From a bacterium (GTDB lineage: Bacteria > Bacteroidota > Bacteroidia > Cytophagales > Cyclobacteriaceae), in NCBI GenBank assembly GCA_024743255.1, contig JANSWY010000006.1, positions 11,610-75,609 of the forward strand: a DNA stretch of 64,000 bases, given 5' to 3'. The notes under the pieces were generated by a model, which was not told the DNA's origin, ran no database searches, and saw only the letters and a list, made by a program, of their open reading frames with translations. Below are positions 19,274-43,951 of this stretch, one piece after another. Position 1 is the stretch's first letter, and every line of letters begins with the position of its first letter. The position numbers were made by a program, and so were the translations under genes.

Positions 19274-19290
19274 TGGTAACAAACGATCAA

Positions 19291-23451: not shown

Positions 23452-23457
23452 AAAATG

Positions 23458-24405: not shown

Positions 24406-24415
24406 TCTTCTGTCT

Positions 24416-27801: not shown

Positions 27802-27803
27802 TT

Positions 27804-27849: not shown

Positions 27850-27963
27850 TTCAATTACATTGCAACTAAGATAACGTCATTCCTGAATTTCTGGAGCGAC
27901 ACAGAAAAGTATTACAACAAGATAATAAACTCGCTTGTCCGCCGAAGCTTAAGCGAAGGTGGA

Positions 27964-28737
27964 CTACCCAAACAACTTCTTCTCAATCTCCTGCAACCTT
28001 CTCTCCATCAACATCACCTTCTCCTCCAATACTTTTGGCGGATTAAGATAAGTACTAAAGACTCCCTTCACCTCCCAACATTCTAATATCTTTTTATGAG
28101 GAATATCAAGCTCAGGATAATTAGGGTCATCAGAACCCAGTTTGAGACTTGTCTTGGTGACTTCAGTAATTCTGTGAGTTTCTAATTGTTGTTCAGTAAC
28201 TACCACCACAATCTGTCCGGCCTTCAATTGAGCCTTGGCTAATTGATGACACATCAGAATATCACCATGATGTAATCCTTGCTGGTGATACTCCATCTCA
28301 GACCCATTCATTTCAAATGCTCTTATGGTTCCTTTCATCTTCACAGGTAAATGGACCCTCTCCAAATTGTTGATGAAGTCTTTATTTTTATGCTGAACCA
28401 TATACTCAACATATTTTTTTACGCTTACAAAAGGAACCCCACCCTGATTCGCAATTGGAGCTGCACTATCAGGAAGCTTATGTGCCTTGCTTAATTTTTT
28501 ATTGAGAATATCAATATTGTAAAGGTCATTTACTGATAATTCTTTACTCAAAAGCACATCAATTGATAAGCCAAAATAATTGGCAATTGAAATTATTGTA
28601 TCAATCTTAGGTTCAGCACGTTCTTCTTCGTATGCACCCACACTTGTACGAGAAAGCTCGAAAATCTCCGCAAATTGCATCTGAGACAGCTTTTTCATAC
28701 TTCTTATCTTCTTTATATTTCTACCTACAAAAGACAT
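27964..28737 (-). CDS. XRE-family HTH regulator with C-terminal S24 (LexA/cI-like) peptidase-like domain
   Basis: N-terminal HTH_3 (KKLSQMQFAEIFELSRTSVGAYEEERAEPKIDTIISIANYFGLSIDVL). C-terminal roughly 120 aa resemble a LexA/cI-type autoproteolytic domain. Confidence 0.55.
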   Translation of the reverse strand: MSFVGRNIKKIRSMKKLSQMQFAEIFELSRTSVGAYEEERAEPKIDTIISIANYFGLSIDVLLSKELSVNDLYNIDILNKKLSKAHKLPDSAAPIANQGGVPFVSVKKYVEYMVQHKNKDFINNLERVHLPVKMKGTIRAFEMNGSEMEYHQQGLHHGDILMCHQLAKAQLKAGQIVVVVTEQQLETHRITEVTKTSLKLGSDDPNYPELDIPHKKILECWEVKGVFSTYLNPPKVLEEKVMLMERRLQEIEKKLFG

Positions 28738-29048
28738 TTTTAATTTTTTTTGCCAAAAAAATGAGCAATTCCAAAACTATTGTCATAAAGCTACCGTATA
28801 TTTACTTGTATCACAAACAAAAACTTGAATAACGCGACTATGAACTCATTAAATAAATTAAAAATAAAACCATCTGGCTGACTTAAGCCCACCAAAGGTC
28901 AAATACTCAAATAAAAGGATTACTATATACTCATTAACATCAACCACTGTCTTTTAATAAAAAATAATTCGGGCGGAACTCTAAGGTCAAAAACGTATTA
29001 ATTAAATTAGCAAAAACTCAGATTATCGACCAAACAAAAATAGACACT

Positions 29049-29441
29049 ATGAACAATTACTTTCAGAAAGTAAAAGACTACCTACTCGAGCTAGATTTTA
29101 GCATTGTACAAGAAGATGAAAATGATGGGATTATTGTAGTAGATAACGAAGAAGATGGAATTAAAAACCTGGTCTTAGTTATAGCTGACCCATTACTAAT
29201 TGTAGAACAATACATATTTGAAGTGAACAATGGCACTCCGGATATTTACAAGCAACTTCTACAAAAGAGCAGAGACATTATACACGGGGCATTCGTACTG
29301 GATGACACGGGATCCAAGGTAATCTTTAGAAACACACACGAACTAGAAAACCTTGATTTAAACGAAATTGAAGCCACATTTAATTCATTGGCTTTATTAC
29401 TAAGCGAATACTCGCAAGACTTAATTGAATTTTCAAAATAA
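29049..29441 (+). CDS. Small acidic cytoplasmic protein, possibly YbjN/YjfI-like
   Basis: 130 aa, strongly acidic. Encoded immediately upstream of PspA, as yjfI precedes yjfJ in E. coli. Fold assignment is tentative. Confidence 0.3.
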   Translation: MNNYFQKVKDYLLELDFSIVQEDENDGIIVVDNEEDGIKNLVLVIADPLLIVEQYIFEVNNGTPDIYKQLLQKSRDIIHGAFVLDDTGSKVIFRNTHELENLDLNEIEATFNSLALLLSEYSQDLIEFSK

Positions 29442-29458
29442 AAAGATAACATACTACG

Positions 29459-30178
29459 ATGAATGTATTTAAGAGAATATTTAAGATAGGAGAAGCTGAA
29501 GCACATTCTGCGATAGACAAACTTGAAGACCCTATTAAAATGACTGAGCAAGGTATCAGAGACCTCAAAAAGGACCTTGATAACAGCTTGAAGGCATTGG
29601 CTGAAGTAAAAGCCATGGGAATCAGATCTAAGAATGATGCTCAGAACTATACCAACAAGGCTAAAGATTACGAAAACAAAGCCATGTTGATTCTAAAGAA
29701 AGCACAAAGTGGCGATATGGATGCAGGTGAAGCTGACAGATTAGCAAGTGAAGCGCTTGTTAAGAAAGAAGAGGCTACTGCAAGTGCCAATCAAGCCAAA
29801 GCTGAGCAAGATAGATTCGAGAAAAACATAGCTCAATTGGATGCTAATGTTAAAAAGATCAGATCTAATATCAGCAAATACGAAAATGAATTGAGAACGC
29901 TGAAAGCAAGAGTTAGAGTGAGTGAAACCACTAAAAAGCTCAACAAGCAAATGTCTCAGATCGATTCTACCGGAACTGTCTCTATGTTAGAGAGAATGAA
30001 AGAGAAAGTAGAGCAAGAAGAAGCATTGGCAGAAGCTTACGGTGACATAGCTAACGAAAGCAGAAGCCTCGACGAAGAGCTTGACGATGCAATTGGCGAA
30101 GGTGCAGCTGAAGCAAAAGCCTCAGATGACCTTGCAGCACTCAAAGCGAAATTAGGAATGGATAAGAAGGAGGAATAA
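29459..30178 (+). CDS. pspA: PspA/IM30 (phage-shock protein A / Vipp1) family protein
   Basis: MNVFKRIFKIGEAEAHSAIDKLEDPIKMTEQGIRDLKKDL… is the canonical PspA N-terminus. Fully coiled-coil, 239 aa. Confidence 0.8.
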   Translation: MNVFKRIFKIGEAEAHSAIDKLEDPIKMTEQGIRDLKKDLDNSLKALAEVKAMGIRSKNDAQNYTNKAKDYENKAMLILKKAQSGDMDAGEADRLASEALVKKEEATASANQAKAEQDRFEKNIAQLDANVKKIRSNISKYENELRTLKARVRVSETTKKLNKQMSQIDSTGTVSMLERMKEKVEQEEALAEAYGDIANESRSLDEELDDAIGEGAAEAKASDDLAALKAKLGMDKKEE

Positions 30179-30187
30179 TTCCTCCTT
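30167..30187 (+). promoter_or_regulatory. Hairpin spanning the pspA stop codon (aaggagg-aataatt-cctcctt)
   Basis: Perfect 7-bp stem. The loop contains the TAA stop. Followed by a U-rich but not canonical tract. Confidence 0.4.
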
Positions 30188-30253
30188 TCCTTTCAAATTT
30201 GTCCATTTTCCTTGACCATAATTCTAAATGAACCACTAAACACCATCCCATAC

Positions 30254-30913
30254 ATGCAAGAAATTCTGGACCACTCTATTAACTCTGTCAATATAATACC
30301 AACCACTATTCTGATTTTTTGTATCCTTTACTGGATAATAGTAATGCTAGGTTTTATTGATATTGATTCATTAGATATCGATGCGGATTTTGATGCTGAT
30401 ATTGACGTTGATGTTGATGCAGACGTGGATGTTGATGGCCCTGATAGTGGATCAATAGGATGGTTAAATCAAGTACTTGTCTTTTTCAACATCTCACATG
30501 TTCCGCTAATGATCTTCTTGAGTTTCTTTGCTCTTTCAACCTGGTTTGCTTCAATGGCTACCAACTACTATTTGAATAATCAAAACTTTCTGTTGAGTTT
30601 GGTTTTCTTAGTTCCGATTTTGCTTGGTAGTTTGTTTGTTGCAAAGTTTGCAACAATACCATTCGTGAAACTTTTCAGACATCTGTCAAGTGGAGAGATC
30701 AGCATCGAATCTTATATTGGTAAAATTTGCAGGGTCATTTTAGTTGCTAAAGAAGGAATCAAAGGGCAAGCTGAAATTAAGATTGAAGGAGGCTCGTATT
30801 TAATCAACACCAAAACTCAACCGGGTGTAACGATATCAAAAGGAGAGAACGGCCTTATCATAGATTATGATGAGCAAGATAAAAGTTATTTAATTGAACC
30901 TTATTACGAATAA
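30254..30913 (+). CDS. YqiJ-like membrane protein with C-terminal NfeD-type OB-fold
   Basis: ORF track starts at TTG 30212; the first ATG is at 30254 (MQEILDH…). Two or more TM helices, acidic DxD repeat, C-terminal GKICRVILVAKEGIKGQAEIKIEGGSYLINTKT (NfeD OB-fold-like). Directly followed by the flotillin gene, as in E. coli yqiJK. Confidence 0.55.
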   Translation: MQEILDHSINSVNIIPTTILIFCILYWIIVMLGFIDIDSLDIDADFDADIDVDVDADVDVDGPDSGSIGWLNQVLVFFNISHVPLMIFLSFFALSTWFASMATNYYLNNQNFLLSLVFLVPILLGSLFVAKFATIPFVKLFRHLSSGEISIESYIGKICRVILVAKEGIKGQAEIKIEGGSYLINTKTQPGVTISKGENGLIIDYDEQDKSYLIEPYYE

Positions 30914-30916
30914 AAT

Positions 30917-33085
30917 ATGGAATTTTTTATTGAACTATTGAAGTCCGGCGGCCTCTTGGTAGCACTTTTCGTTATTGGAGCATTCGTCATCATTATCCGA
31001 ATGTACAAAAAAGCCCGCCAGGGTGAAGCCATTGTCACAACAGGTGCTGGAGGAACCAAAGTATATTTCAGTGGAGCTGTTGTTATCCCTGTCCTAAATA
31101 AAATGGAACTAATGGATATAACTCTCAAAACTGTCCAAATCAACAGAACTGGAGGTGAAGGTCTAGTCTGTAAGGATAACATGAGAGCAGATATTAAGGT
31201 TACATTCTTCGTTAGGGTAAATCAAACAAAGGAAGACGTTAAGCAAGTTGCTCAGGCGATTGGGTGTGAAAGAGCATCAGACCAACAGCAGTTAGAATTA
31301 CTATTCGATGCTAAATTCTCAGAAGCTCTTAAAACTGTGGGTAAGCAATTTGATTTCGTTGAACTTTACAACTCCAGAGATGATTTCAAACAACAAATAT
31401 TAAATACAATCGGCACAGATTTGAATGGGTATGTGCTTGATGATTGTGCAATAGACTACCTAGAACAGACACCTATTCATTCCATGGATGAAAACAACAT
31501 TCTGGATTCCGAAGGTATAAAGAAAATTATTGAACTTACTTCTGCTCAAAAAATTCTTGCAAATGGGATTGAGAAGGAGAAAGAAAAAACCTTGACTAAG
31601 CAAAATGTTGAGGCCAAAGAAACTGTACTTGAGTTAGAAAAGCAGTTAGCTGAAACAGAAGCTAAGCAGAAAAGAGAAGTCGAAACAATTCAAGCCAGAG
31701 AACAAGCGGAAACCGATAAGGTTAGAGAAGAAGAAAGGCTAAAAGCTGAAAAAGCAAGAATTACTGCTGAAGAAGAAATCCAGGTCAGTGAAGAAAATAA
31801 GCTAAGAGAAATTCTAGTTGCAGCGAAAAACAAAGAGAAAACAGACGCTGTAGAAACTGAAAGAGTACAGCAGGCTCAGCTTCTTGAAGCGACTGAAAAA
31901 GAGAAAATCGTAGAGTTAGCTCAAATCGAGAAACTGAAAGCAGTTGAAGAAGAAAAGAGAAAGATTCAGGATGTTATCCGCGAAAGAGTAGCTATTGAGA
32001 AAACAGTAGTGGAAGAAGAAGAAAGCATGAAAAACACACGTGCTTTCGCTGAAGCAGACAGAACAAAGAAAGTTGCTATAACCCTAGCTGAGAAAGAAGC
32101 TGAAGAGGCTTTAGTTAAGCAAATCAAAAGTGCAGAAGCTGCTAAAGAAGCTTCCGAACACCTTGCAAAACAGAAGCTTATTGATGCTCAGGCTGCCGAA
32201 ACAGCAGCAACTCACGAGGCATCTGCGAAGAAAACAATGGCTGACGCTCAAGCTGCAGAAGCCGCAGCAATCGGTTTGTCAGAAGCACAGGTAATGGAAG
32301 CAAAAGCTGATGCTCTAGAGAAACAAGGAGACGCTGAAGCATCTATGATTGAAGCTAAAATGGCAGCTGAAGCGAAAGGTATTGAAATGAAGGGAGACGC
32401 GCAGGCATCTGCTAACGAACAAATCGGTATGGTGCAGGCGAAGGTTAATCTGGAGCAAGGATCTTCTCAAGCGAAAGTAATCGCTCTAAAAGCAGACGCT
32501 GAACAAAAAATGGGTATGGCTGAAGCTAAGGTGATGGCAGAAAAATATGCAGCAGATGCAAAAGGTATCTCTGAAAAAGCCAAAGCAATGCAAGAACTTG
32601 ACGGTGTAGGAAGAGCACATGAAGAATTCAAATTGAAACTTGAGGTCGATAAGGAAATAGAGTTGGCGAAGATCAATATCCAGAAAGAAATCGCTGCGGC
32701 TCAGGCTAATGTGATCTCAGAAGCACTGAAAGCTGCTAACATCGATATTGTGGGTGGAGAAACCATGTTCTTCGACCAGATTGTGGGATCCATCACAAAA
32801 GGTAAATCGGTGGATCAATTGATGAGCCACAGTGAAGTGCTGACTCAAGTGAAGGACACATTCTTCGACACTGAGACAGGTGGAAACTTCAAAGATAAAC
32901 TTCAACAATTCACTGCTCAGTTTGGTATTAGTGCCAGTGAGTTAAGAGAATTAAGCATATCAGCTCTATTGATTAAGATGATGGGCTTGTCGAGTGACAG
33001 TGACACCAAAGGAATACTCGGACAGCTTAAAACAGCTGCTGAGGCCCTTGGAATCTCTGAGCAGAGTGCAAGTTCTTTAATCTAA
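30917..33085 (+). CDS. Flotillin-like SPFH/band-7 protein (YqiK type) with long Ala/Glu-rich coiled-coil
   Basis: N-terminal TM helix, SPFH domain (…GEAIVTTGAGGTKVYFSGAVVIPVLNKMELMDITLKTVQINRTGGEGLVCKDNMRADIKVTFFVRV), then roughly 350 aa of EA-rich coiled-coil. Confidence 0.8.
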   Translation: MEFFIELLKSGGLLVALFVIGAFVIIIRMYKKARQGEAIVTTGAGGTKVYFSGAVVIPVLNKMELMDITLKTVQINRTGGEGLVCKDNMRADIKVTFFVRVNQTKEDVKQVAQAIGCERASDQQQLELLFDAKFSEALKTVGKQFDFVELYNSRDDFKQQILNTIGTDLNGYVLDDCAIDYLEQTPIHSMDENNILDSEGIKKIIELTSAQKILANGIEKEKEKTLTKQNVEAKETVLELEKQLAETEAKQKREVETIQAREQAETDKVREEERLKAEKARITAEEEIQVSEENKLREILVAAKNKEKTDAVETERVQQAQLLEATEKEKIVELAQIEKLKAVEEEKRKIQDVIRERVAIEKTVVEEEESMKNTRAFAEADRTKKVAITLAEKEAEEALVKQIKSAEAAKEASEHLAKQKLIDAQAAETAATHEASAKKTMADAQAAEAAAIGLSEAQVMEAKADALEKQGDAEASMIEAKMAAEAKGIEMKGDAQASANEQIGMVQAKVNLEQGSSQAKVIALKADAEQKMGMAEAKVMAEKYAADAKGISEKAKAMQELDGVGRAHEEFKLKLEVDKEIELAKINIQKEIAAAQANVISEALKAANIDIVGGETMFFDQIVGSITKGKSVDQLMSHSEVLTQVKDTFFDTETGGNFKDKLQQFTAQFGISASELRELSISALLIKMMGLSSDSDTKGILGQLKTAAEALGISEQSASSLI

Positions 33086-33104
33086 AAATCAAGCAAATCA
33101 TTAC

Positions 33105-33131
33105 TTCCTCCTTCTATTATGGAAGGAGGAA
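33105..33131 (+). promoter_or_regulatory. Hairpin between the flotillin and giant ATPase genes (ttcctcctt-ctattatgg-aaggaggaa)
   Basis: Perfect 9-bp stem with the same sequence as the pspA-stop hairpin, arms in opposite order. No T-tract. Confidence 0.4.
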
Positions 33132-33166
33132 ACTGAATTGACAATTTTTCATGTCAAAAACCACTT

Positions 33167-36100
33167 ATGGCTGAAAACGAAGAAAATATAAATCAACAAC
33201 AGGAGCAATCCGTGGAACTTGAAGCGGGTACTTATGAAGTACTGAGAAATCGTCTCAAGCAAAACGGAGCTGATCTCCTCAACACTGTCAACCAACTCAA
33301 TTCGGCACGTAAAGAAGTCTTTGGAACCATAGAAACTGAACTGGTTCACACTGACAGAATCACAACGGCCAACAATTGTGTTCCGTGGGATATGGTGCCA
33401 ATAGGATCCAATTTCATCTTTGGATACAACGTGCACATGGGTCTTAAAGTAGAGACCAACCTTGAAGATGTTTTTAGTATCTACAAATTCGAAAACAACG
33501 CATTCCACGAACAACCACTCGACCTGTTAAAAGGTAAAACATTTGAAGCTGACTTCAAGCAACTATATAAATACTACAAAGACACTGTATTTGTAAAGTT
33601 CGCCAAGATTGGACCTCACCTTCATATGGTCTTCAGAATTGGTAAGGAGGTAACAGATATAAAAACCTTCAAGTGGCAAATCAATGGTGATAAACTAAAG
33701 TACATCGACAATAGAAGTGCTCACGAGTTTATATTCCCTGAGCAACATCAATTCAGGTGGAAAAGAACAAGTAGAGAACATCACAGAGAAGGAAAACATC
33801 CACATATCTCGGTTGAAGATCAGGTGTTTGTAGAGACTGTTGGTGGAGATTTAACCATCAAAATTGAGGATAATACTGATGACGGAAAGGGAATCTATAG
33901 AGAACCTGTTGAGCATCAGGAGCAAACGTTAACCGATAGTGAGATCCAATACACAATCATTGGAAACCTCATTATTCTAAAGATAAGACCATACCAGGAA
34001 GATTATAGGTACCTGGTATTTAATTCCAAACTGGAGAAAGTCCAAAGAATTGATGCCTTATCAGAATCATGTATTCTTTTGCCCGATGATCATGGAATTA
34101 TATTTAGCAATGGTTATTACCTGCAAAATGGAGAATTCAAGCAATTCGATAATGATCTAAGTAATATGATCTTCGAGAAGCGTATTGATGCTCCAAATGG
34201 TGAAGACTACCTTTATGTGTTCTACAATCGTCTGGAAGGGATTTACTTATTATTGAATTACAATCTGATCAATCAAAGTGTAGAAAGTCCATTGATGTGT
34301 CATGGGTTTTCAATATTTGATGATGGTACCATGTGCCTGTTCCGCGGCGATAAAGATCCGAAGAAACACCACGTAGTTCAAATTTGGAAAACGCCATTTA
34401 CCAACTCAGATTTCGAACAACCAACTAAAAACACTTCCCTGATCAGCAAAATCGGGAATAAGGAAATTGTAAGAGCAATGGCTGAATGCCATGAGGTGCT
34501 CAACTACATCAATCGGGATGAGGTTTTCTCTTCATTGTACATTGATTTAATTAAGATGACTTCAGATATTCTTGATAGTTATCATTGGTTGAACAAAGAG
34601 GAAGTATTTACCATCTCCTCCCCTCTTCAGGCTGTTAAAGAAACTGCGTCTTCCACAGTAGATGAGTTTGAAAAAGTAACCCGAATCAAAAAAGATACGG
34701 CAGAAAAGCTGGAAGAAACAGGAGCAAAAGCTGATGAAGTAATCAAGAATGTCAAAAAACTTCACGCTAAAGACATCAATGATTATGTAGCCATTCTTAA
34801 TGAACTCAGAATTGCTCGAGGAGAAGTAATATCACTAAAAGAACTTCGATACATTGATCTTGACAGAGTAGAAAAATATGATGCTCTATTAGCAGAATAT
34901 GCTGATGACATTTCAAAGCGATGCGTTAATTTCCTACTAAGAGATAATTCGCTGAAACCATATATCGATCGAGTTGATAATCTTTCTAAATCCATTGAGG
35001 AAATCAAGAAAGTGAAAGCTGCGGATGAGACAAGTGAGCAAATTGACACAGTATCTGAGGATTTAAAAATGCTAATTGATACAGTCAGTAATCTGGCAAT
35101 CGATGATGCTACTGAAACAACTCGAATCATCGATGAGATTTCCAATATATACTCTGAAATCAACAAGGTAAAAGCGGAACTAAGGAAGAAAAGAAAGTCG
35201 CTTAGAAGTTCCGAGGGAAAAGCTGAGTTTAATGCACAGTTAAAACTTGTAGATCAGGCAGTTATCAACTTCCTGGATCTTTGTGACACACCTGAGAAAT
35301 GTGAGGAATATCTCACCAAATTGATGGTTCAGTTAGAAGAGCTGGAAGGTCGTTTCTCTGAGTTTGATGAGTTCATTGCGAAGATCGCTGAAAAGCGTGA
35401 TGATGTATACAATGCATTTGAATCTAAAAGAGTCAATCTACTAGAAGCCAGAAATAAAAGAGCCGCAGTGCTCCAACAATCTGGTGAAAGGATCATTAAG
35501 TCCATAAAATCTAGAATCTCCAGGTTTGAATCAGTCAATGAAATCAATGGTTACATGGCCTCTGATTTGATGATTGAGAAACTTAGAAAGATTGTAGAGG
35601 ATCTTAACGAAATTGGAGATACCGTAAAGGCAGAAGATCTTAACTCCAAGCTCAAAACAACCAGAGAAGATGCATTAAGACAATTAAAAGATCGATCTGA
35701 GTTATACGCTGATGGAGATCATTTGATCAAGTTTGGAACTTACCAGTTTGCTGTTAACACTCAGAATCTGGATCTGACCATTGTTCCTAGAAATGGTGAA
35801 ATGTACTACCACCTTACTGGTACCGACTTCTTCGAAATCATCAGGAACGAAAATTTTGAGAGAACCAAACCTGTTTGGAATCAGGATCTGATTTCCGAGA
35901 ACAATGAGGTTTACAGATCAGAATATCTGGCGTATTCGATAATCTCCAAGGCCAGAGCTAAGGAAAACAGATTGCTTGAAAAGGGTGATTTTGAATTTCT
36001 GACAACTAAGGAGCTTTACGAATTAGATGAAAAAGGACTACTGGATTATGTTCAGCGATTCATGGCTTTAAGGTACAATGAAGGATACCTAAAAGGAGTT

Positions 36101-38158
36101 CATGATTTCGATGCTTCACAGATCCTGGCGACTTTATTGGATCTGTTACAAACAGCAGACCTTCTTAGATATTCCTCAATTTCAAGAGCTTTTGGAGCTT
36201 TGTTCTGGAAAGTCTTTGTAACTGAAGAGCAAAAATTAGTTCTTGACAATCAAATAAAAGGTGCCGGTTTGATACTTAACATCTTCCCGGATACCAGAGA
36301 ATTCAGTAATATTCTTGAGGATATCAAAATAGAACTCAGCAGCTTTCTGGAGAGACATCCATTATTTGAAGCTGAATTGGTTGACGAAACGGCGTACTAT
36401 CTATTTTACGAATTAGCACGTGGTAACCAATTCATCATTGATAAAGAAACAGCAGCATTTGAAACTGCATTTAAAGAAGAACTAAACAAAAGCAAGGCCA
36501 CTAAGAAGTTCAAGGATTCAATCAAAGAGTTGGCTGAACATCCTGAATTGGAATACAGATTGATCAGAAAATGGTTAAATGCGTTCATTGATCAACATTC
36601 AAAAGAACAGTGGAGAGAATATGTAGATGAGTGTGCCATACTATTAATGATGGGTGATTCTAACCCGAATCGTATTGTACACACCAATCTAAAAGTATCG
36701 ATTGATAACCTTAGAGGAGATCATGTCTTAATCGATAATGGCAGTTATCATCTTGATTACAACCACTTTATGATTAAGCTTAATCATTTCCAAAACCATA
36801 CCGTGCAGTTGTACAATCAGTTTTTGGAATTGAAAAAGACTTTAGCTGCTGATTTTGCGGATGACCTTAGATTAAGCGAATTTAGACCGAGGATACTTTC
36901 TTCTTTTGTGAGAAATCAATTGATTAATGAAGTCTATCTTCCATTGATTGGTTCAAACTTAGCGAAGCAAATAGGAACAGCCGGAGAACAAAAAAGAACC
37001 GACTTAAATGGACTTTTACTTTTGATCTCCCCTCCTGGTTATGGTAAGACAACTTTGATGGAATACATCGCCAATCGTCTTGGAATCATCTTCATGAAGA
37101 TAAACGGTCCGGCACTTGGGCATTCTATCATCTCACTCGATCCGGGAGAAGCTCCAAACGCTACTTCGAAAGAAGAACTGGAGAAGCTAAACCTGGCTTT
37201 TGAGATGGGCGACAATGTAATGATATATTTGGATGATATTCAGCATTGTAATCCGGAGTTACTTCAGAAGTTCATTTCACTTTGTGATGCACAGCGAAAA
37301 ATTGAAGGGGTTTATAAAGGTAAGACCAAGACCTATGACTTCCGAGGCAAGAAGGTATGTGTGGTGATGGCGGGAAATCCATACACAGAAAGTGGAGAGA
37401 AATTCCAGATTCCTGATATGCTCGCAAACAGAGCTGACATCTACAACCTTGGTGATATCATTGGCGACACAGACGATGTGTTCAACATGAGCTATATAGA
37501 AAATAGCCTTACGTCAAATCCAGTGTTAGCAAAAGTTGCCGGCAAAAGTCATAAAGATGTTCTAAAGTTTGTAGAAATAGCTGAAACCGGCAAACAAGAA
37601 GGAATAGAGTTCGAAGCAAGTCATTCTCCTGAGGAACTAAGCGAAGCTGTTGAGATATTGAAGAAAGTTATTGTTGTTCGAAATATTATTACAAACGTAA
37701 ATCAGCTATATATCAAATCAGCTGCTCAGTCAGACGAATACAGAACAGAGCCTTCATTCAAATTACAGGGGTCTTACAGGGATATGAATAAAATTTCTGA
37801 GAAAATCGTCTCAGTAATGAACGATGAAGAATTGGATACACTCATCATGTCTCACTACGAGAATGAGTCCCAAACACTTACCAGTGGTGCTGAATCCAAT
37901 CTATTAAGGTTTAAGCAGTTGATTGGAAAGATGAATGATCAGGAAACTGAAAGATGGAGCAGTATTGTAGAAACCTTCCAGAAGCAGCAAAAGATGAAAG
38001 GATACGGTCAGGACAGCCAGGTAGGGCTGGTTATTGAACAAATGGAAGCCATTTCACAAGGTCTGAATGGCATTAAGGAAGAAATACTCGATAAAATGCG
38101 TGTCTACAGTGTAGCAAGCAGAACTAAAACTCAAAGAAAGAAAAATGACACTAAATGA
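33167..38158 (+). CDS. 1663-aa protein with a single C-proximal MoxR/dynein-type AAA+ (AAA_5-like) ATPase domain
   Basis: Uninterrupted 4992-nt ORF. P-loop LLLLISPPGYGKTTLMEY. Walker B/arginine region IYLDDIQHCNPELLQKF (compare MoxR LDEINRAPPEVQNAL). Sensor region VVMAGNPYTESGEKFQIPDMLANRADIYNL (compare ATQNP…LPEAQLDRF). The N-terminal roughly 1250 aa were not recognised; residues 480-800 are coiled-coil rich. Confidence 0.6.
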   Translation: MAENEENINQQQEQSVELEAGTYEVLRNRLKQNGADLLNTVNQLNSARKEVFGTIETELVHTDRITTANNCVPWDMVPIGSNFIFGYNVHMGLKVETNLEDVFSIYKFENNAFHEQPLDLLKGKTFEADFKQLYKYYKDTVFVKFAKIGPHLHMVFRIGKEVTDIKTFKWQINGDKLKYIDNRSAHEFIFPEQHQFRWKRTSREHHREGKHPHISVEDQVFVETVGGDLTIKIEDNTDDGKGIYREPVEHQEQTLTDSEIQYTIIGNLIILKIRPYQEDYRYLVFNSKLEKVQRIDALSESCILLPDDHGIIFSNGYYLQNGEFKQFDNDLSNMIFEKRIDAPNGEDYLYVFYNRLEGIYLLLNYNLINQSVESPLMCHGFSIFDDGTMCLFRGDKDPKKHHVVQIWKTPFTNSDFEQPTKNTSLISKIGNKEIVRAMAECHEVLNYINRDEVFSSLYIDLIKMTSDILDSYHWLNKEEVFTISSPLQAVKETASSTVDEFEKVTRIKKDTAEKLEETGAKADEVIKNVKKLHAKDINDYVAILNELRIARGEVISLKELRYIDLDRVEKYDALLAEYADDISKRCVNFLLRDNSLKPYIDRVDNLSKSIEEIKKVKAADETSEQIDTVSEDLKMLIDTVSNLAIDDATETTRIIDEISNIYSEINKVKAELRKKRKSLRSSEGKAEFNAQLKLVDQAVINFLDLCDTPEKCEEYLTKLMVQLEELEGRFSEFDEFIAKIAEKRDDVYNAFESKRVNLLEARNKRAAVLQQSGERIIKSIKSRISRFESVNEINGYMASDLMIEKLRKIVEDLNEIGDTVKAEDLNSKLKTTREDALRQLKDRSELYADGDHLIKFGTYQFAVNTQNLDLTIVPRNGEMYYHLTGTDFFEIIRNENFERTKPVWNQDLISENNEVYRSEYLAYSIISKARAKENRLLEKGDFEFLTTKELYELDEKGLLDYVQRFMALRYNEGYLKGVHDFDASQILATLLDLLQTADLLRYSSISRAFGALFWKVFVTEEQKLVLDNQIKGAGLILNIFPDTREFSNILEDIKIELSSFLERHPLFEAELVDETAYYLFYELARGNQFIIDKETAAFETAFKEELNKSKATKKFKDSIKELAEHPELEYRLIRKWLNAFIDQHSKEQWREYVDECAILLMMGDSNPNRIVHTNLKVSIDNLRGDHVLIDNGSYHLDYNHFMIKLNHFQNHTVQLYNQFLELKKTLAADFADDLRLSEFRPRILSSFVRNQLINEVYLPLIGSNLAKQIGTAGEQKRTDLNGLLLLISPPGYGKTTLMEYIANRLGIIFMKINGPALGHSIISLDPGEAPNATSKEELEKLNLAFEMGDNVMIYLDDIQHCNPELLQKFISLCDAQRKIEGVYKGKTKTYDFRGKKVCVVMAGNPYTESGEKFQIPDMLANRADIYNLGDIIGDTDDVFNMSYIENSLTSNPVLAKVAGKSHKDVLKFVEIAETGKQEGIEFEASHSPEELSEAVEILKKVIVVRNIITNVNQLYIKSAAQSDEYRTEPSFKLQGSYRDMNKISEKIVSVMNDEELDTLIMSHYENESQTLTSGAESNLLRFKQLIGKMNDQETERWSSIVETFQKQQKMKGYGQDSQVGLVIEQMEAISQGLNGIKEEILDKMRVYSVASRTKTQRKKNDTK

Positions 38159-38297
38159 TACTCTTAAAGGAATAATAGTACTGATTGTACTGTTTTTCGT
38201 TTTTGGATTTTTATTCAATTTCCTGTTTAAGGTAGGGATAATCGCTATATTGGTACTAGGTATAGTTTACCTCTACAAAAGAATATTCGTCGATTAG
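38145..38297 (+). CDS. Unannotated 50-aa two-TM micro-protein overlapping the stop of the giant ATPase gene
   Basis: ATG at 38145 (ATGACACTAAATGA overlaps the upstream TGA). Translation MTLNDTLKGIIVLIVLFFVFGFLFNFLFKVGIIAILVLGIVYLYKRIFVD; stop TAG at 38295-38297. Absent from the ORF track only because it is under 60 aa. Confidence 0.4.
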   Translation: MTLNDTLKGIIVLIVLFFVFGFLFNFLFKVGIIAILVLGIVYLYKRIFVD

Positions 38298-38395
38298 AAA
38301 TAACAAATCTCAAAATACAAATAACAAATAATTACACCGTATTTTGATTTTTGGAAATTGAAATTTGAAATTTAATTTTTGAAAAAAATTACGAC

Positions 38396-38950
38396 ATGGG
38401 ACTTTTTGATATGTTTAAAAAGAAGGAGAAGTTAAGTTATGATCCTAACAACGTGAAGGTCACGGATTTGGATTTCAACTTCATCCTTGATTATGATATG
38501 AAATCCTGGAAAGTTACAGAAGTATGGGAGTACGACTGGGGTGACAATAACTTTACATGGGAATACAAAATTGATGCAGGTGATGACGCAGCTTTTCTTC
38601 ATGTAGATGATGATGTACAGCTTACCTTGACGCTTACAAGACCTGTCAAAATTAGAAAAATAGATGAGGATCTTGTAGAGACTATAGTTAAGGATGAGAA
38701 GCCACCAAACAAGCTATTCTGGGAAGGTGAAAAATACTATTTGGATACTGATAGCGCTGGATACTGCAAAGATCACTCTAAAGAAACCAATGACTGGGAA
38801 GAATTCATCATGTGGGATTACTACAATGAAGATGAAACAAAAGTACTTTCCATAACTCAGTGGGATGAAAGAAATTTTGATGCGTATGCAGGAGAAGTAG
38901 TGCAGGAATTCCAGATAGAAAACATCATTCCGGCAGACCCAGAAGATTGA
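38396..38950 (+). CDS. Small Trp/Asp-rich soluble protein (tentatively DUF4178-like)
   Basis: 184 aa. WKVTEVWEYDWGDNNFTWEYKIDAGDDAAFLHVDDD…WEGEKYYLD. Family assignment not verified. Confidence 0.35.
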   Translation: MGLFDMFKKKEKLSYDPNNVKVTDLDFNFILDYDMKSWKVTEVWEYDWGDNNFTWEYKIDAGDDAAFLHVDDDVQLTLTLTRPVKIRKIDEDLVETIVKDEKPPNKLFWEGEKYYLDTDSAGYCKDHSKETNDWEEFIMWDYYNEDETKVLSITQWDERNFDAYAGEVVQEFQIENIIPADPED

Positions 38951-39038
38951 TTCTGAAACAAGGATTTCTCTGCTCACAGGATTTCACTATATTTAAGCAA
39001 CTTTATAATTGTGCTGTCACAAGAAATTGAAAACTAAA

Positions 39039-39767
39039 ATGAAACTCGCTAAACTATTTATTGCATCCATTGTAATATTATCCTTATCAGCCTGCGGTGG
39101 TAGCAAAAGGTTTCAAAAAAACCCAATTGATGATATTATCAAAGAAATTCCTACAGATCGCGTTTTTTCGATCATCCTACATGATATGGACGTTCAGGGT
39201 AATTTTTCTGATGCCTACTATCATCAGTATAAAATCATAGAAGAAGTAACTCCGGGAGAGCCTGAAGAAAGAATCACAGACTGGAAAAAAGTACCTGAGA
39301 CTGTTTTCAATATGCACATGAACAACATGGGTATGGAGATTGCTTCCAGAGGGGAAGATGGCAAATTGAGTAAAGCTGCAACACCTCCGGGATACAATAA
39401 CTACGTAGGTAACCCAAAATACGGGACCTGGAGACAGAGAGACGGATATAGCTTCTGGGAATTTTATGGACAATATGCTTTCATGAGAAGCATGTTCGGA
39501 TATGGTGGATATCCGGTTAGAAGATCATACTATGACGACTGGAGAGGTAATTATTACGGTACTGGAAGAACTTACTATGGGCCGACTTATGGAGGCACAA
39601 CTTACTACGGAACGTCTAGTAGCTACAACAGATCTTCAAGACCAAATTCTACCTGGAATAGTAAGCCTAACACCTTCAAGCAACGAGTTGCCAACCGAAC
39701 TTCAAGATCAAGTAGCAGATACAGTAGCTCAAGTTCAAGATCTCGTGGAGGAGGATTTGGTAAATAA
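39039..39767 (+). CDS. Lipoprotein with Tyr/Gly/Ser/Arg-rich low-complexity C-terminal tail
   Basis: ORF track starts at 39009; the ATG at 39039 gives MKLAKLFIASIVILSLSACGG (classic lipobox LSAC). The tail reads …GYGGYPVRRSYYDDWRGNYYGTGRTYYGPTYGGTTYYGTSSSYNRSSR…SRSSSRYSSSSSRSRGGGFGK. Confidence 0.5.
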   Translation: MKLAKLFIASIVILSLSACGGSKRFQKNPIDDIIKEIPTDRVFSIILHDMDVQGNFSDAYYHQYKIIEEVTPGEPEERITDWKKVPETVFNMHMNNMGMEIASRGEDGKLSKAATPPGYNNYVGNPKYGTWRQRDGYSFWEFYGQYAFMRSMFGYGGYPVRRSYYDDWRGNYYGTGRTYYGPTYGGTTYYGTSSSYNRSSRPNSTWNSKPNTFKQRVANRTSRSSSRYSSSSSRSRGGGFGK

Positions 39768-39829
39768 TTATCAGAGTTCAGAAAAAGAAATTAACCATAG
39801 CCAAATAGCTAAAACTTAACCTTAACACT

Positions 39830-40696
39830 ATGCATCCTATATTAGATGGAATTCTAACAACGATCGTTTACATCGCGGTTGCTTTTGTGCTTTTCTTTAT
39901 TGGTAAAGTCGTTTACCAACTGTTTAATCCCAAAATCAAAGTTGGACACGAGCTTGTCGAGAATGACAATTTTGCCTTTGCTATAGCATATGTTGGATAC
40001 TTTGGTGGTTTACTGCTCGCAATCGGAAGTGCCGTAATGGGTGAGTCGAGTGGATTTTTAGTTGATGACCTAATCGATATCGGTATTTACGGAGCATTGT
40101 CAATCCTATTATTGAACCTGTCCATTATTATCAATGACAAGGTAATCCTTTCAAAGTTCAATGTAAAAAAGGAGATCATTGAAGATAAAAATATAGGAAC
40201 GGGTGTTGTACAGGGTGCAAACTCAATAGCTACTGGTTTGATTATCTTAGGAGCTATCCACGGTGAAGGACACGGTGATGGTGGACCAATAATTACTGCA
40301 ATCATGTATTGGTTGCTAGGTCAGGGAATCATGTTTATTACCTCATTGGTTTACAACCTTATCACCCCTTATGATATTCATGAGCACATTGAGAAAAATA
40401 ATGCAGCAGTTGGTATTGGATATGCAGGAGCAATAATAGCAATAGCCAACCTTATCAGATTTGCTTTGATGCACGATTTTGAGAGCTGGGTTATTACATT
40501 AGAAGATGTTGGAATTGATGTCGCAATTGGACTTGTATTCCTACCGATAGTTAGAACACTAACTGACAAAATATTACTCCCTGGACAAAAACTTACTGAT
40601 GAAATTGTGAACCAGGAGCACCCGAATCACGGAGCTGCTATGGTTGAAGCTTTTGCTTACATAGGAGGTTCAGTATTAATTTGCTGGAGCCTGTAA
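39830..40696 (+). CDS. Glycine-rich multi-TM membrane protein with two homologous halves (tentatively DUF350-type repeats)
   Basis: 288 aa, roughly 8 TM helices, internal duplication (AFAIAYVGYFGGLLLAIGSAVMGE / AAVGIGYAGAIIAIANLIRFALMHD). Confidence 0.4.
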   Translation: MHPILDGILTTIVYIAVAFVLFFIGKVVYQLFNPKIKVGHELVENDNFAFAIAYVGYFGGLLLAIGSAVMGESSGFLVDDLIDIGIYGALSILLLNLSIIINDKVILSKFNVKKEIIEDKNIGTGVVQGANSIATGLIILGAIHGEGHGDGGPIITAIMYWLLGQGIMFITSLVYNLITPYDIHEHIEKNNAAVGIGYAGAIIAIANLIRFALMHDFESWVITLEDVGIDVAIGLVFLPIVRTLTDKILLPGQKLTDEIVNQEHPNHGAAMVEAFAYIGGSVLICWSL

Positions 40697-40786
40697 AGAA
40701 ATTAGGACGGAAAACCGGAGACCGAAGACTGAAGTTAAAATTAAACTCCGGTCTTCGGTCTTCCGTCTTCTGACCCATACCCATCA

Positions 40787-42328
40787 ATGAAGATCCACTC
40801 TCATATCCTTAAAATAGCGCTATTTGCCACCGGGCTGTCTGGTATTGTAGCAGAATATGTGCTTTCAACCCTTGCCACATACTTCCTTGGAGATTCAGTT
40901 TTTCAGTGGACGATGATTGTGTCTATCATGCTGTTCTCAATGGGATTGGGAAGCAGAATTAGTAAGTATCTTCTTAAGAACCTTATTGAGAAATTCGTCC
41001 TTATCGAATTTGTGCTTTCATTTCTGGCTGCCTTTGTTTCGGTAATTACTTATTTGTCAGCAGCATTTATTGGTATTGAAGGTTTGGTAATCTATTCATT
41101 AAGTGTGATAATCGGATTGCTTATAGGAATGGAAATTCCTTTAGTGATTAGACTCAATGATAAATATGAAGCACTGAGATCCAATATTTCCAGCGCTATG
41201 GAAAATGATTATTATGGAAGTCTATTAGGTGGAGTATTCTTTGCATTTGTTGGCCTCCCCTATCTTGGACTGACTTATACTCCTTTCATTCTGGGCACAG
41301 TAAATCTTTGTGTGGCACTCACATTGATGTTTATGCTATGGAAACAGCTGGAAAAGAAGACCCGAGTAAAGCTTGGAAGTGCTGCTGTGATAGTAGTGCT
41401 GCTGCTAACTACAGGTTCAATGTTTGCTAAAAGAACAATTGAATATGGTGAAAACAGAAGGTATGCAGATAAAGTCATCTACACTGAGCAGACGCCTTAT
41501 CAAAGAATAACAATTACACAATCTCACGGAGAGTTTTGGTTATTTATCAACGGAAACCAACAACTTAGCACCATAGATGAAGTGATGTATCACGAACCTC
41601 TGGTTCATCCTGTTATGAGACTTTCTCCAGATGCTAAAGACATACTGGTTCTTGGGGGCGGTGACGGTGGAGCAGTCAGGGAAATATTAAAATACAATAC
41701 AGTCAAATCCATCACACTGGTAGATTTAGATCCTGCAATGACTCAACTGGGGCAAACCTATCCCCTGCTTGTGGAGATGAATCAAAATGCTATGAATCAT
41801 CCAATGGTTGAGATCATCAATACCGACGGTTACAATTATCTTGAAGATTCCAAAAAGTTCTTTGATGCGATTATAATTGACCTGCCTGATCCAAAATCAA
41901 TAGAGCTTGGGAGGTTATATTCTTATGAATTCTATAAGATCTGTTATCGCCAATTAAGACCTCATGGAATAATCATTACTCAGGCTGGAAGTCCCTATTA
42001 CGCTGCAAAAGCTTTCAATTGTATCGACAAAACAATGGAGGAAGCAGGTTTCACTACTGCTCCATTACACAATCAGGTGGTAACACTTGGTGAATGGGGC
42101 TGGGTACTAGGTGCAAAGGAAATCGCTAAATCCAGGCTTAAAGAGAAACTGCAAGAATTAGATTTTGAAGGAGTAGAAACGCGATGGATCAATAAAGATG
42201 CAATGACGCTGATTACTTCCTTTGGCAAGGCTGCATTTCCAGAAGCTACTGACTCAGTTGAGATCAATAAGATTCACAATCCGGTCCTTTACAAGTATTA
42301 CCTGGATGGGAAGTGGGACTTATATTAG
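40787..42328 (+). CDS. speE: Membrane-anchored spermidine-synthase-like polyamine aminopropyltransferase (N-terminal multi-TM domain + SpeE fold)
   Basis: Roughly 200-aa N-terminal domain with 6-7 TM helices. SpeE core motifs ILVLGGGDGGAVREILKY, ITLVDLDPAMT, FDAIIIDLPDP. Confidence 0.7.
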   Translation: MKIHSHILKIALFATGLSGIVAEYVLSTLATYFLGDSVFQWTMIVSIMLFSMGLGSRISKYLLKNLIEKFVLIEFVLSFLAAFVSVITYLSAAFIGIEGLVIYSLSVIIGLLIGMEIPLVIRLNDKYEALRSNISSAMENDYYGSLLGGVFFAFVGLPYLGLTYTPFILGTVNLCVALTLMFMLWKQLEKKTRVKLGSAAVIVVLLLTTGSMFAKRTIEYGENRRYADKVIYTEQTPYQRITITQSHGEFWLFINGNQQLSTIDEVMYHEPLVHPVMRLSPDAKDILVLGGGDGGAVREILKYNTVKSITLVDLDPAMTQLGQTYPLLVEMNQNAMNHPMVEIINTDGYNYLEDSKKFFDAIIIDLPDPKSIELGRLYSYEFYKICYRQLRPHGIIITQAGSPYYAAKAFNCIDKTMEEAGFTTAPLHNQVVTLGEWGWVLGAKEIAKSRLKEKLQELDFEGVETRWINKDAMTLITSFGKAAFPEATDSVEINKIHNPVLYKYYLDGKWDLY

Positions 42329-42673
42329 AGTTTGGAGCAGTCCAATCTTGCTCAATCAAGTCTAAAGATAGAAAGATAAACTGACAACCGTCAGCCGTCA
42401 ACAGACAACTACTAAAACAACCTCAACTACAGTATTGGCACACTTATCTATACAATTCAGACACTAATCGAATATCTCTAAATAATACCGTTCTATGCAT
42501 TACTTTAGTATTGTATTCACGTAGAATACAAGGACAACAAGCGGTACAATTAGTTGAATTTGAGAGATTTATTGGACAGGACAAACTAACTAAACTCAAA
42601 TTCTAAGACGAAAATATAGGTACATTAACGAGCACTTATTTAGTAGAAATCTTCGGATTAATATTATGGTTGA

Positions 42674-42700
42674 AAGAGAAGCGTTCTGGGCTTCTCTTTT
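42674..42700 (+). terminator. Rho-independent terminator
   Basis: gagaagcgttctgggcttctc hairpin followed by ttttttatt. Confidence 0.5.
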
Positions 42701-42703
42701 TTA

Positions 42704-43951
42704 TTATCTGTACCTCACTTTAGTAAACCACACATCAAGTAGCGAAACACTCAAAGAGAACTTGGAATAGTTATCCTTGTAGAAGTCGCCCAAATCCTGC
42801 CCCCTATTTGTGTATTCATAAATAAATCGAATCATTGCCTTATTTCGTACGGGAAAACCAAACCCGCCAGTAAATCCTCTACTAACAATCTGTTCTTCAT
42901 CCAGAATCAAATAAGAGTCCTGCCTAAAAACTCCAAACCCATAATTCACTCTGCTAAACCAACTTTCTTCATTATACTTTGGTAATCTTTCCATACCAAA
43001 TGCCCAGCGATGACTATTGGTAAGCTGATATCCTTGCCCGGAGATATCGGTATCTGACCACATTTGCAAGTCATAATCCCCAGACACTTTGAACAGATCC
43101 CTCAAATTCCAGGAAATACCAACACCAAAGGATTGTGGAAGCGAGTATCCTATTTCGTCTATATCTTCAATAGTTACAGTATCATATGGCAACAGCGTAC
43201 TGGGATCCAGGTTGGAAACTATTAATTCCCGGTCTTCATTGAGAGAAGTACCAGGGTTATAAACTGCTCCTAATACAACTTCTGATCTATTTACAGGTAT
43301 CTTAATCTGAATACCTAAATCATAATTCAATGAGCTCAAAAACAGTTGATCATCAATACCGATATTATATCCCAATTGTGATGAGATAATCTTTTGATCA
43401 TTCTGAAGCGATCCGAAGATATAAGAACCATGAGCCCCAATTGAAATTGTATTCCAAAACTCTCGAGCGAACCCAAAATAGACTTCATTCAGCCCACCGC
43501 TCCCTTGGTAGTCAATGATATAATCCCCATTGATTCCACTAAAACTACTTTCTCCAAGAATAGAATAGTTCACATTGCTAAACTTCCTCAAACCAAAAGA
43601 AGCTCCAGAATTCTTACCTGTTTTAAATCCCATTGCCAAATAAGGAAATTGCATTTCAGATTGATAGCTGGTTTGATCTCCTTCTTTAGAAGTTCCGGTA
43701 GAAACATTTAATCCCCATTCAGTAATGGTATTGATCCTCCTAAAAGAACTGTAGGAAGCCGGATTTATATTATTTAGTGAAAATGGATTTCGGGAGGCAA
43801 TTCCTGTACCTCCAGTGATCATTTGTTGACCAAAACCTTTATGATATATATCTCCAATACCAAAATACGAATATGCTGAGCCATTCACATTCTGACCAGC
43901 CAATCGAACGGAAAACAATAATAGTAATGCTAAAAAGATGGATTTCTGCAT
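42704..43951 (-). CDS. Outer-membrane beta-barrel protein (porin/FadL-like)
   Basis: ORF track starts at 44023; the signal peptide begins at the internal Met (MQKSIFLALLLLFSVRLAGQ), giving start 43951. Rich in alternating aromatic/Gly strands. Confidence 0.45.
   Translation of the reverse strand: MQKSIFLALLLLFSVRLAGQNVNGSAYSYFGIGDIYHKGFGQQMITGGTGIASRNPFSLNNINPASYSSFRRINTITEWGLNVSTGTSKEGDQTSYQSEMQFPYLAMGFKTGKNSGASFGLRKFSNVNYSILGESSFSGINGDYIIDYQGSGGLNEVYFGFAREFWNTISIGAHGSYIFGSLQNDQKIISSQLGYNIGIDDQLFLSSLNYDLGIQIKIPVNRSEVVLGAVYNPGTSLNEDRELIVSNLDPSTLLPYDTVTIEDIDEIGYSLPQSFGVGISWNLRDLFKVSGDYDLQMWSDTDISGQGYQLTNSHRWAFGMERLPKYNEESWFSRVNYGFGVFRQDSYLILDEEQIVSRGFTGGFGFPVRNKAMIRFIYEYTNRGQDLGDFYKDNYSKFSLSVSLLDVWFTKVRYR

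Follow-up and report, generated by a model that had tools for sequence, protein, structure and literature searches.

What holds together a run of ten genes that places a PspA-type membrane protein, a flotillin, a giant ATPase and a spermidine-synthase-like enzyme one behind another? The question is raised by positions 29049-42328 of a 64,000-nucleotide stretch of a Cyclobacteriaceae genome (assembly GCA_024743255.1, contig JANSWY010000006.1, positions 11,610 to 75,609 of the forward strand), called the window below. The original prediction, made for this DNA from its letters alone, described ten co-oriented genes with small spacers or overlap; the limits of the ten open reading frames (ORFs), all on the + strand, agree with it exactly. 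Our reading, to which we give a probability of roughly 0.75, is that the region is one repressor-controlled operon for envelope stress or membrane maintenance, in which two PspA cassettes have been fused behind one dyad of a CesT/Tir-like chaperone and PspA. The genes, designated g1 to g10, and the elements around them are as follows (aa, amino acids; TM, transmembrane; HTH, helix-turn-helix).

29049-29441, + strand: g1, CesT/Tir-like chaperone, 130 aa; first half of the CesT-PspA dyad
29459-30178, + strand: g2, PspA/IM30 (ESCRT-III-like) protein of the YjfJ type, 239 aa
30212-30913, + strand: g3, YqiJ/YuaF-like membrane protein with an acidic (D-x)n loop
30917-33085, + strand: g4, YqiK-type flotillin, 722 aa
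33167-38158, + strand: g5, giant beta-propeller/AAA+ ATPase, 1663 aa
38145-38297, + strand: g6, two-TM micro-protein, 50 aa
38396-38950, + strand: g7, DUF4178 protein, 184 aa
39039-39767, + strand: g8, lipoprotein, 242 aa counted from ATG 39039
39830-40696, + strand: g9, YjfL-family membrane protein with two DUF350 repeats, 288 aa
40787-42328, + strand: g10, multi-TM N-terminal domain followed by a spermidine-synthase-like aminopropyltransferase domain, 513 aa
27964-28737, - strand: regulator gene; XRE-type HTH, degenerate S24 (LexA-like) domain and C-terminal coiled-coil helix
28751-28800, no strand: control block; a palindrome, then AAACTTTG-like and CGTAAAGCTAC-like elements
42672-42700, + strand: terminator-like hairpin and T run beyond g10, common to a convergent gene

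A fused array assembled from two known cassettes

The spacers from g1 to g10 are, in order, 17, 33, 3, 81, -14, 98, 88, 62 and 90 nucleotides (nt). The second of them grows to 75 nt when counted from ATG 30254, which is probably the true start of g3 because this methionine (M15) is invariant in 16 homologs; for g8 there is an alternative longer start at TTG 39009. No + strand terminator-like hairpin lies between any two of the ten genes. The hairpin at 42672-42700 is the sole strong + strand terminator-like site outside coding regions within 27800-42800, and transcription of the unit probably ends there. No RNA element was found in the locus by Rfam, tRNA and tandem-repeat scans. A sigma-70 promoter scan, which is not valid for Bacteroidota, stayed at background (46 sites vs. 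42 expected), and the strict Bacteroidota -33/-7 pattern gave a single, irrelevant match; neither pinpoints promoters in this locus.

Both halves of the array have been described. Popp, Ravi et al. (2024, mSystems, PMC11237479) report, in the text and tables available to us, "two novel overlapping genomic associations" built on the CesT/Tir-PspA dyad. Their first group joins the dyad to YqiJ, a band-7/flotillin protein and a beta-propeller-AAA+ ATPase, with Dokdonia donghaensis ANH61663.1 as the example, for which Table S3 shows "<-cHTH+Protease" immediately upstream; the description of this group is computational only. The second group joins the dyad to DUF4178, a lipoprotein (Ctha_1186), YjfL/DUF350 and a TM-spermine-synthase, as in Shewanella oneidensis SO_3765, and the third is of the E. 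coli yjfIJKLMC type. For Acidobacteriota, Popp et al. (2022, PMC9239133) had also noted PspA alongside band-7/FloT, NfeD and HTH regulators.

Set against these groups, g1-g5 reproduce the first, protein type for protein type and in its order, and the divergent cHTH+protease gene is shared too; however, the window operon continues past the ATPase into five more genes. The g7-g10 products are the same four protein types as in the second group, but the gene order is unlike that in Shewanella, the CesT protein belongs to PF22550 and not to DUF2170, there is no ribbon-helix-helix gene, and a two-TM micro-protein absent from the available account of that group stands 5' of DUF4178. In addition, the YqiJ-flotillin-ATPase genes are inserted in the window between PspA and the micro-protein. 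The available text and tables of PMC11237479 do not mention one operon with both halves behind a single dyad. The claim in the original prediction that this is not a described system therefore shrinks to the single-dyad fusion, which that source does not explicitly describe as far as it was available, whereas both halves and the regulator are in it. The locus is a new arrangement of known parts and not a new kind of system; what is new here is the fusion behind one dyad, the micro-protein as a component, the candidate operator and its regulon, and the apparently inactive S24 domain.

All window proteins were mapped onto 58 genome loci around ATPase homologs, 52 metagenome loci around g10 homologs and 3 further loci taken from database proteins. 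The fused order, in which the micro-protein or DUF4178 gene comes straight after the ATPase and the rest of the second cassette comes next, turned out to recur in nine loci beyond the window (L001, L005, L030, L060, L062, L063, L113, L114 and L115), whose ATPases share 99, 86, 83, 67, 66, 62, 61, 61 and 60% identity with g5. L001 (OZ245848.1, a Cyclobacteriaceae metagenome-assembled genome) is near-identical to the window and carries the 99%-identical ATPase, and Roseivirga metagenome-assembled genomes are also among the fused loci. The complete array from regulator to aminopropyltransferase is seen in five of the nine, which are long enough for it (L001, L005, L030, L113 and L114). An adjacency that is fortuitous and confined to one genome, which the original prediction had named as the outcome that would sink it, is not borne out. 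Among the informative loci, all with an ATPase at least 60% identical to that of the window are fused and none at or below 59% is. The fusion appears to have happened once and to have been passed down within one branch of Cytophagales.

Outside this branch the two cassettes mostly travel apart. CesT-PspA-YqiJ-flotillin-ATPase without the second cassette occurs in 30 loci, mostly from Hymenobacter, and most of these have a homologous regulator divergent upstream. YqiJ-flotillin-ATPase only is found in 16 loci (Pontibacter, some Cyclobacteriaceae, one Planctomycetaceae). PspA stands directly upstream of the second cassette in 12 loci, most of which also show the CesT gene, and five of the 12 (L065, L067, L068, L086 and L100) have the homologous divergent regulator. 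Both cassettes are present but unfused in two loci. In L027, the DUF4178, lipoprotein and DUF350 genes lie downstream of the regulator on the opposite strand, with the aminopropyltransferase 7 kb beyond the ATPase; in L091, the cassettes each have a PspA of their own and stand on either side of an extra aminopropyltransferase gene. The cassettes have thus come to lie together in at least three arrangements, which argues for a shared function. In the window, YqiJ, flotillin and ATPase genes set the dyad apart from g6-g10, and one dyad serves ten genes.

The same distribution feeds another explanation, namely that two independent operons, a PspA/flotillin/ATPase one (g1-g6) and a polyamine-type one (g7-g10), each with its own promoter, merely abut and that their adjacency is meaningless. 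The separation of the cassettes in most loci favors it, and promoters are possible in the 98-nt spacer between g6 and g7 and in the other spacers of 60-90 nt. However, the polyamine-type cassette of the window lacks a PspA or CesT gene of its own, whereas the unfused examples with readable upstream sequence always have PspA directly upstream, and most of them show the CesT gene as well. The micro-protein, elsewhere part of the polyamine-type cassette, overlaps the ATPase stop codon both here and in L114, the fused order is kept down to 60% ATPase identity, the cassettes are juxtaposed in two other arrangements (L027 and L091), and no terminator-like site separates them. The single dyad, the overlap with the ATPase stop, the persistent order and the lack of a terminator together make a chance abutment unlikely.

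The probable regulator and its control block

The regulator is a protein of 257 aa, encoded divergently with a 311-nt spacer to g1. Pfam recognizes HTH_19 (3e-12) and Peptidase_S24 (3.4e-8) in it, and in about 40 loci a homolog is encoded divergently from, and upstream of, the CesT-PspA dyad. As it is co-conserved in these loci with a conserved operator block, the XRE/S24-like gene is very probably the regulator of the operon, in line with the role first suggested for it. Calling it an S24 repressor, as was done at the outset, holds for the fold but not for the catalytic residues. A PDB sequence search with the whole regulator returned HTH proteins only, and a profile of its C-terminal domain alone reached LexA chains (E 0.002). 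In the column of LexA S119 the profile consensus has Glu and the residue is otherwise variable, with no conserved Ser near; in the column of K156 the window regulator has His and most homologs have Arg. Unlike the self-cleaving S24 repressors LexA and CI, the protein thus lacks the Ser nucleophile and the Lys general base and is a predicted pseudo-protease, for which LexA-type self-cleavage is unlikely. A conserved C-terminal helix gives a weak match to designed coiled coils.

The first 85 nt of 39 regulator-CesT spacers were aligned. The palindrome GCTCA-N5-TGAGC is at an invariant distance from the regulator start codon in this alignment, and the elements AAACTTTG and CGTAAAGCTAC follow it at fixed distances. 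The exact palindrome occurs in 25 loci with one copy per locus of roughly 25 kb, against a chance expectation that we estimate at about 0.02 per locus. We infer that the elements flanking it are Bacteroidota -33/-7 promoter boxes with the operator within their spacer. In three of the 25 loci, L026 (6777-6830), L049 (6821-6835) and L011 (226-240), the palindrome precedes a YqiJ-flotillin-ATPase operon that has neither an adjacent XRE/S24 gene nor the dyad. In L026 the flanking elements recur in diverged but recognizable form, and the divergent neighbor there is a PadR-like regulator with a MacB/FtsX permease. The presence of the palindrome upstream of such unlinked operons suggests that a single regulon spans the cassettes even where they are not linked.

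The leader between the operator block and g1 contains an imperfect direct duplication of about 85 nt (28837-28994), with the pairs ACTATGAACTCATTAA / ACTATATACTCATTAA and AAGGTCAAATAC / AAGGTCAAAAAC, parts of which recur in L005 and L030. Regulator-CesT spacers longer than 300 nt are found in close relatives of the window (L001, L005 and L030) and in L095, and the others measure 121-285 nt.

Identity of the ten proteins

The PspA, flotillin (Band_7), AAA_5, DUF4178, DUF350 and Spermine_synth assignments proposed from the letters all score above the Pfam cut-offs. The dyad is formed by a CesT/Tir-like gene immediately 5' of a yjfJ-type pspA gene, with 17 nt between them. Over its full length g1 matches CesT_Tir_1 (PF22550, 2e-54), and its homologs are always directly upstream of PspA in the related loci; pairwise comparison with E. 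coli YjfI/DUF2170 detected no similarity. The g2 protein matches PspA_IM30 over residues 2-231 (2.7e-42) and is 24% identical to E. coli YjfJ over the full length (E 4e-7).

The resemblance to yjfIJKLMC that had been pointed out for this locus is partial. A YjfJ-type PspA paralog after a small chaperone-like protein, a DUF350 protein, a lipoprotein and a polyamine-related enzyme are common to both, and g9 is similar to E. coli YjfL (E 6e-6). On the other hand, g1 is unlike YjfI, none of the ten proteins has a Pfam match to DUF2170, DUF2491 (YjfK) or DUF1190 (YjfM), and YjfC, an ATP-grasp enzyme of the glutathionylspermidine-synthetase-like/peptide-spermidine ligase type, is absent, the window enzyme being an aminopropyltransferase. 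Only YjfJ and YjfL have equivalents among the ten proteins. The classical Psp system (pspF-pspABC) likewise has a gene for an effector of the PspA/ESCRT-III family beside a divergent regulator, but a Pfam scan of the locus found no PspF, PspB or PspC domain, and the HTH of the window regulator is of the repressor type and not that of a sigma-54 activator.

The likeness of g3-g4 to E. coli yqiJK and B. subtilis yuaFG holds: the pair is homologous to YqiJ-YqiK and has the same order; in contrast to yqiJK, it is followed by a 1663-aa ATPase, lies within a PspA operon and has a flotillin 170 aa longer than YqiK. The YqiJ/NfeD call for g3 stands in its first part. YqiJ_N matches g3 at 0.008, under the Pfam cut-off, and matches 7 of 16 members of the g3 family (best 2e-4, all under the cut-off), and no direct NfeD-domain match was found; however, the family profile aligns with E. 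coli YqiJ with a probability of 80% (hhalign, E 1.4e-5), and a g3-type gene always precedes the flotillin gene in the compared loci. The putative YqiJ identity is based on this profile comparison and on synteny. Within g3, a 12/24-nt tandem repeat (30374-30437) encodes the acidic (Asp-x)n loop DIDADFDADIDVDVDADVDVD, which is retained in the family consensus and could bind cations or polyamines.

The flotillin g4 consists of a TM segment, an SPFH/Band-7 domain, a long Ala/Glu-rich coiled coil and a conserved C-terminal domain. Whole-protein Pfam and PDB sequence searches were blank, which was an artefact of composition bias; the N-terminal 224 aa scanned alone (and only then) match Band_7 (6.6e-14) and BLASTP against E. 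coli YqiK is clear (32% identity over 436 aa, E 1e-49). Homologs are named "flotillin family protein" or YqiK in the sources. The Pfam model Flot (PF15975) for the C-terminal part does not match the last 160 aa of g4, even at E 10.

The giant ATPase g5 comprises an N-terminal helix, a beta-propeller (DUF3686), DUF7902, a long helical region, a single AAA+ module with Walker A at residues 1291-1296, and a helical tail. Its Pfam matches are DUF3686 (8e-186), DUF7902 (4.5e-26), AAA (2.4e-7) and AAA_5 (6.4e-6). The P-loop module passes the cut-offs of both AAA and AAA_5 (AAA_5 with 26.7 bits vs. 22), with PF00004 AAA the higher of the two. An AlphaFold2 model of residues 1-505 (mean confidence score pLDDT 80, pTM 0.80) shows a helix and then an all-beta domain, the PDB fold matches of which are beta-propellers only. 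In the model of residues 1181-1663 (pLDDT 77), which adopts an AAA+ fold, a beta-hairpin separates the Walker-B helix from the sensor-1 strand; the top fold matches are NorQ/CbbQ of the MoxR family, followed by MCM, RuvB and ClpB. Walker A, the DD of Walker B and the sensor-1 Asn are invariant across 20 homologs. The AAA_5/MoxR class is a reasonable but tentative placement. MoxR ATPases are usually partnered by a VWA protein, and a Pfam scan of the locus proteins found no VWA gene. Like Vps4 in the ESCRT-III system, g5 is an AAA+ ATPase encoded alongside a polymer-forming protein, but it has no MIT domain, carries a beta-propeller and has MoxR-like fold matches. A database protein 100% identical to g5 is named "DNA repair ATPase", a family name that echoes the Pfam description of DUF3686. 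The name may be a misnomer, since neither the constant flotillin/YqiJ context nor the published neighborhood analysis lends any support to DNA repair; a literature search for DUF3686 found nothing.

The start of g6 overlaps the stop of g5 by 14 nt. Its translation, MTLNDTLKGIIVLIVLFFVFGFLFNFLFKVGIIAILVLGIVYLYKRIFVD, forms a two-TM hairpin. In at least 14 loci the gene immediately 5' of DUF4178 encodes a homolog of 47-59 aa that is about 50% identical and has the motif FGFxFxxLFKxGI...LYLYKK. Judged by these homologs, the micro-protein, which the original prediction had listed, is a genuine conserved member of the polyamine-type cassette. Where the ATPase is missing in these loci, the g6 homolog comes after PspA, so that YqiJ-flotillin-ATPase can be read as an insert between PspA and the micro-protein.

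Of the remaining products, g7 is a conserved member of the second cassette (DUF4178, 9.4e-20) and is predicted to be cytosolic and beta-rich. The signal peptide of g8 ends in the lipobox LSAC (MKLAKLFIASIVILSLSAC), and its tail is of low complexity and rich in Tyr, Gly, Ser and Arg. It has no Pfam match; its homologs occupy the same position in the related loci, and by position and architecture it corresponds to "LipoSIG+Ctha_1186+Low-comp" in Table S3 of PMC11237479, as far as that table is available to us. DUF350 is found in g9 in two stretches (1.4e-56).

The N-terminal 220 aa of g10 are hydrophobic, and Spermine_synth matches residues 266-443 (2.7e-39). Its C-terminal domain is similar to solved aminopropyltransferases, and the alignment keeps YHE..LVHP, GGGDGG, VDLD, D-x-x-DP and TQAG, i.e., intact cofactor- and amine-binding motifs. 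Fusions of this kind (TM-SpdSyn) reportedly make no spermidine and fail to rescue E. coli mutated in spermidine synthase, and their host bacteria are said to be without spermidine.

Intact motifs of this kind make it conceivable that the operon is primarily one of polyamine biosynthesis or homeostasis, with g10 as a membrane-located source of spermidine or a related polyamine and with PspA and flotillin in an accessory role; this would be the local polyamine synthesis of the original prediction. The strong similarity of g10 to solved spermidine synthases (E 3.6e-35) supports this, as do the second Spermine_synth, amine oxidase and ion-channel genes after the Roseivirga array and the extra SpeE paralogs near several related loci. 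Yet aminopropylation of a non-polyamine substrate has been raised as an alternative for the TM-fused forms (PMC11237479, in its available part, citing Li et al. 2019), and the flanking genes tested include neither an S-adenosylmethionine (AdoMet) decarboxylase nor a diamine-forming decarboxylase. The same dyad and regulator also serve loci without any polyamine gene, and a purely biosynthetic operon would leave these unexplained; we therefore regard this explanation as improbable.

The convergent genes of Roseivirga just mentioned lie at 21615-24980 in L114 and 12184-15549 in L115 and resemble elements of the third group of PMC11237479, as described in its available part. In several loci, extra aminopropyltransferase paralogs with 26-53% identity are a few kb away from the g10 homolog; those listed for such paralogs or a second Spermine_synth are L062, L068, L085, L086, L090-L092 and L103.

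Proposed mechanism, its weighing and the genomic surroundings

The operon favored here may work as follows. A dimeric XRE/S24-like regulator would bind the palindrome and repress the operon and probably itself. Because its S24-like domain is without the Ser/Lys dyad, release would not proceed by LexA-type self-cleavage and is more likely to come through the binding of a ligand or partner; a partner switch in which the CesT-like protein or PspA frees the regulator is speculation. A CesT-like dimer would hold or target PspA, which as an ESCRT-III-type polymer would bind and seal damaged inner membrane. YqiJ and the YqiK-type flotillin may form an SPFH scaffold. The beta-propeller/coiled-coil/MoxR-like AAA+ giant would spend ATP on assembling or disassembling this scaffold and possibly the PspA polymer too; the scaffold is proposed as its substrate because in 16 loci YqiJ, flotillin and ATPase are found together without PspA. 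A membrane-spanning complex around the TM-anchored aminopropyltransferase could be made up of the micro-protein, DUF4178, lipoprotein and DUF350 proteins. The aminopropyltransferase would move an aminopropyl group from decarboxylated AdoMet to a membrane-proximal amine, be it a polyamine or another substrate, and thus change local charge or stability.

Several points count against this reading as a whole. All the functional steps draw on family knowledge and gene context. The cassettes are apart in most genomes, so that physical or obligate functional coupling is not required. The 81-98-nt spacers are roomy enough for internal promoters. The window's own palindrome, GCCAAAAAAATGAGC at 28752-28766, is degenerate, with two mismatches in one half-site. 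No AdoMet decarboxylase is present among the nearest flanking genes tested, which leaves the supply of the donor unaccounted for at the locus. Finally, the AAA+ clade of g5, called MoxR/dynein-class at the outset, is ambiguous: the fold points to MoxR/MCM/RuvB and is nearest to NorQ/CbbQ, whereas the PDB sequence matches favor classical AAA (Cdc48/p97), with little coverage past the Walker A region.

A much bolder version, which we consider a long shot when all its parts are taken jointly, is that the fusion reflects one physical machine rather than co-regulation. The YqiJ/flotillin scaffold, remodeled by the ATPase, would then corral the complex of micro-protein, DUF350 protein, lipoprotein and aminopropyltransferase. 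At sites sealed by PspA, a membrane component (for example a lipid head group or a lipoprotein) would receive covalently bound aminopropyl groups, and the pseudo-protease repressor would sense free CesT-like chaperone or PspA as a partner switch. If true, such a machine would amount to an enzymatic membrane-repair pathway of a new type, linked to a bacterial ESCRT-III.

The co-regulated operon preferred here has consequences of its own. PspA-CesT/Tir cassettes have so far been known from comparative genomics only, and the sharing of PspA, chaperone and repressor in one lineage argues that the flotillin/ATPase and aminopropyltransferase branches serve the same response. The fused lineage offers a compact genetic handle, with a single promoter and a single predicted operator. 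From the conserved operator a regulon can be predicted and looked for across whole genomes, the missing catalytic dyad predicts that the regulator senses its signal by means other than self-cleavage, and the micro-protein is a component previously unlisted.

Past the regulator gene, the next gene in the window and in the loci most closely related to it encodes a 914-aa superfamily 1 (SF1) helicase (AAA_11/AAA_12; 25057-27801, - strand). It is probably a lineage-specific neighbor and not a component, since the Hymenobacter and Roseivirga loci lack it. An anti-phage defense or abortive-infection island, with an XRE-type regulator, membrane-acting effectors and the helicase as a member, is very improbable: the XRE/CI-type regulator, whose HTH matches PADLOC regulator models, the helicase adjoining it in the window, L001, L005, L030, L040 and L113 (with a KAP NTPase in L113) and the historical tie of PspA to phage stress would fit, but the structural genes match only generic coiled-coil, P-loop and methyltransferase folds in PADLOC-DB 2.0 and no defense-system model, the helicase is also missing from the loci with the polyamine cassette only, the G+C content of the locus (0.35-0.41) is like that of the remainder of the window (about 0.35-0.39), and the cassettes are conserved over many species and several genera, unlike patchy defense islands.

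In L113, the KAP-family NTPase gene is two small ORFs past the helicase, and in L061 a helicase homolog with 41% identity flanks the cassette on its opposite side. The gap that separates the helicase start from the regulator gene's 3' end in the window carries 3.2 copies of a 16-nt unit, TTTTGGCTGTTTAGC (27803-27851). Farther away, 21259-24979 (-) and 19291-21054 (+) encode an ECF sigma factor, two FecR-domain proteins, a protein with a GldM-like domain and a hybrid histidine kinase, which are unrelated to the operon. On its 3' side, the operon faces a convergent ORF of 439 aa (42704-44023, - strand) that is 94% conserved in L001 and has no Pfam match at E 0.01.

Some of the related loci carry further genes. 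In L114 (Roseivirga), a PLDc_2 gene of the HKD phospholipase D superfamily (3321-4007) follows the regulator gene on the same strand; some proteobacterial flotillin cassettes include such a PLD-type hydrolase, according to the available part of PMC11237479. The same locus has an 82-aa ORF before the ATPase (9731-9979) and, after the aminopropyltransferase, a 263-aa protein (19134-19925) with a sub-threshold DUF3592 match only. In L113, a 100-aa ORF (15988-16290) and a 181-aa membrane protein (17985-18530) lie within the second cassette.

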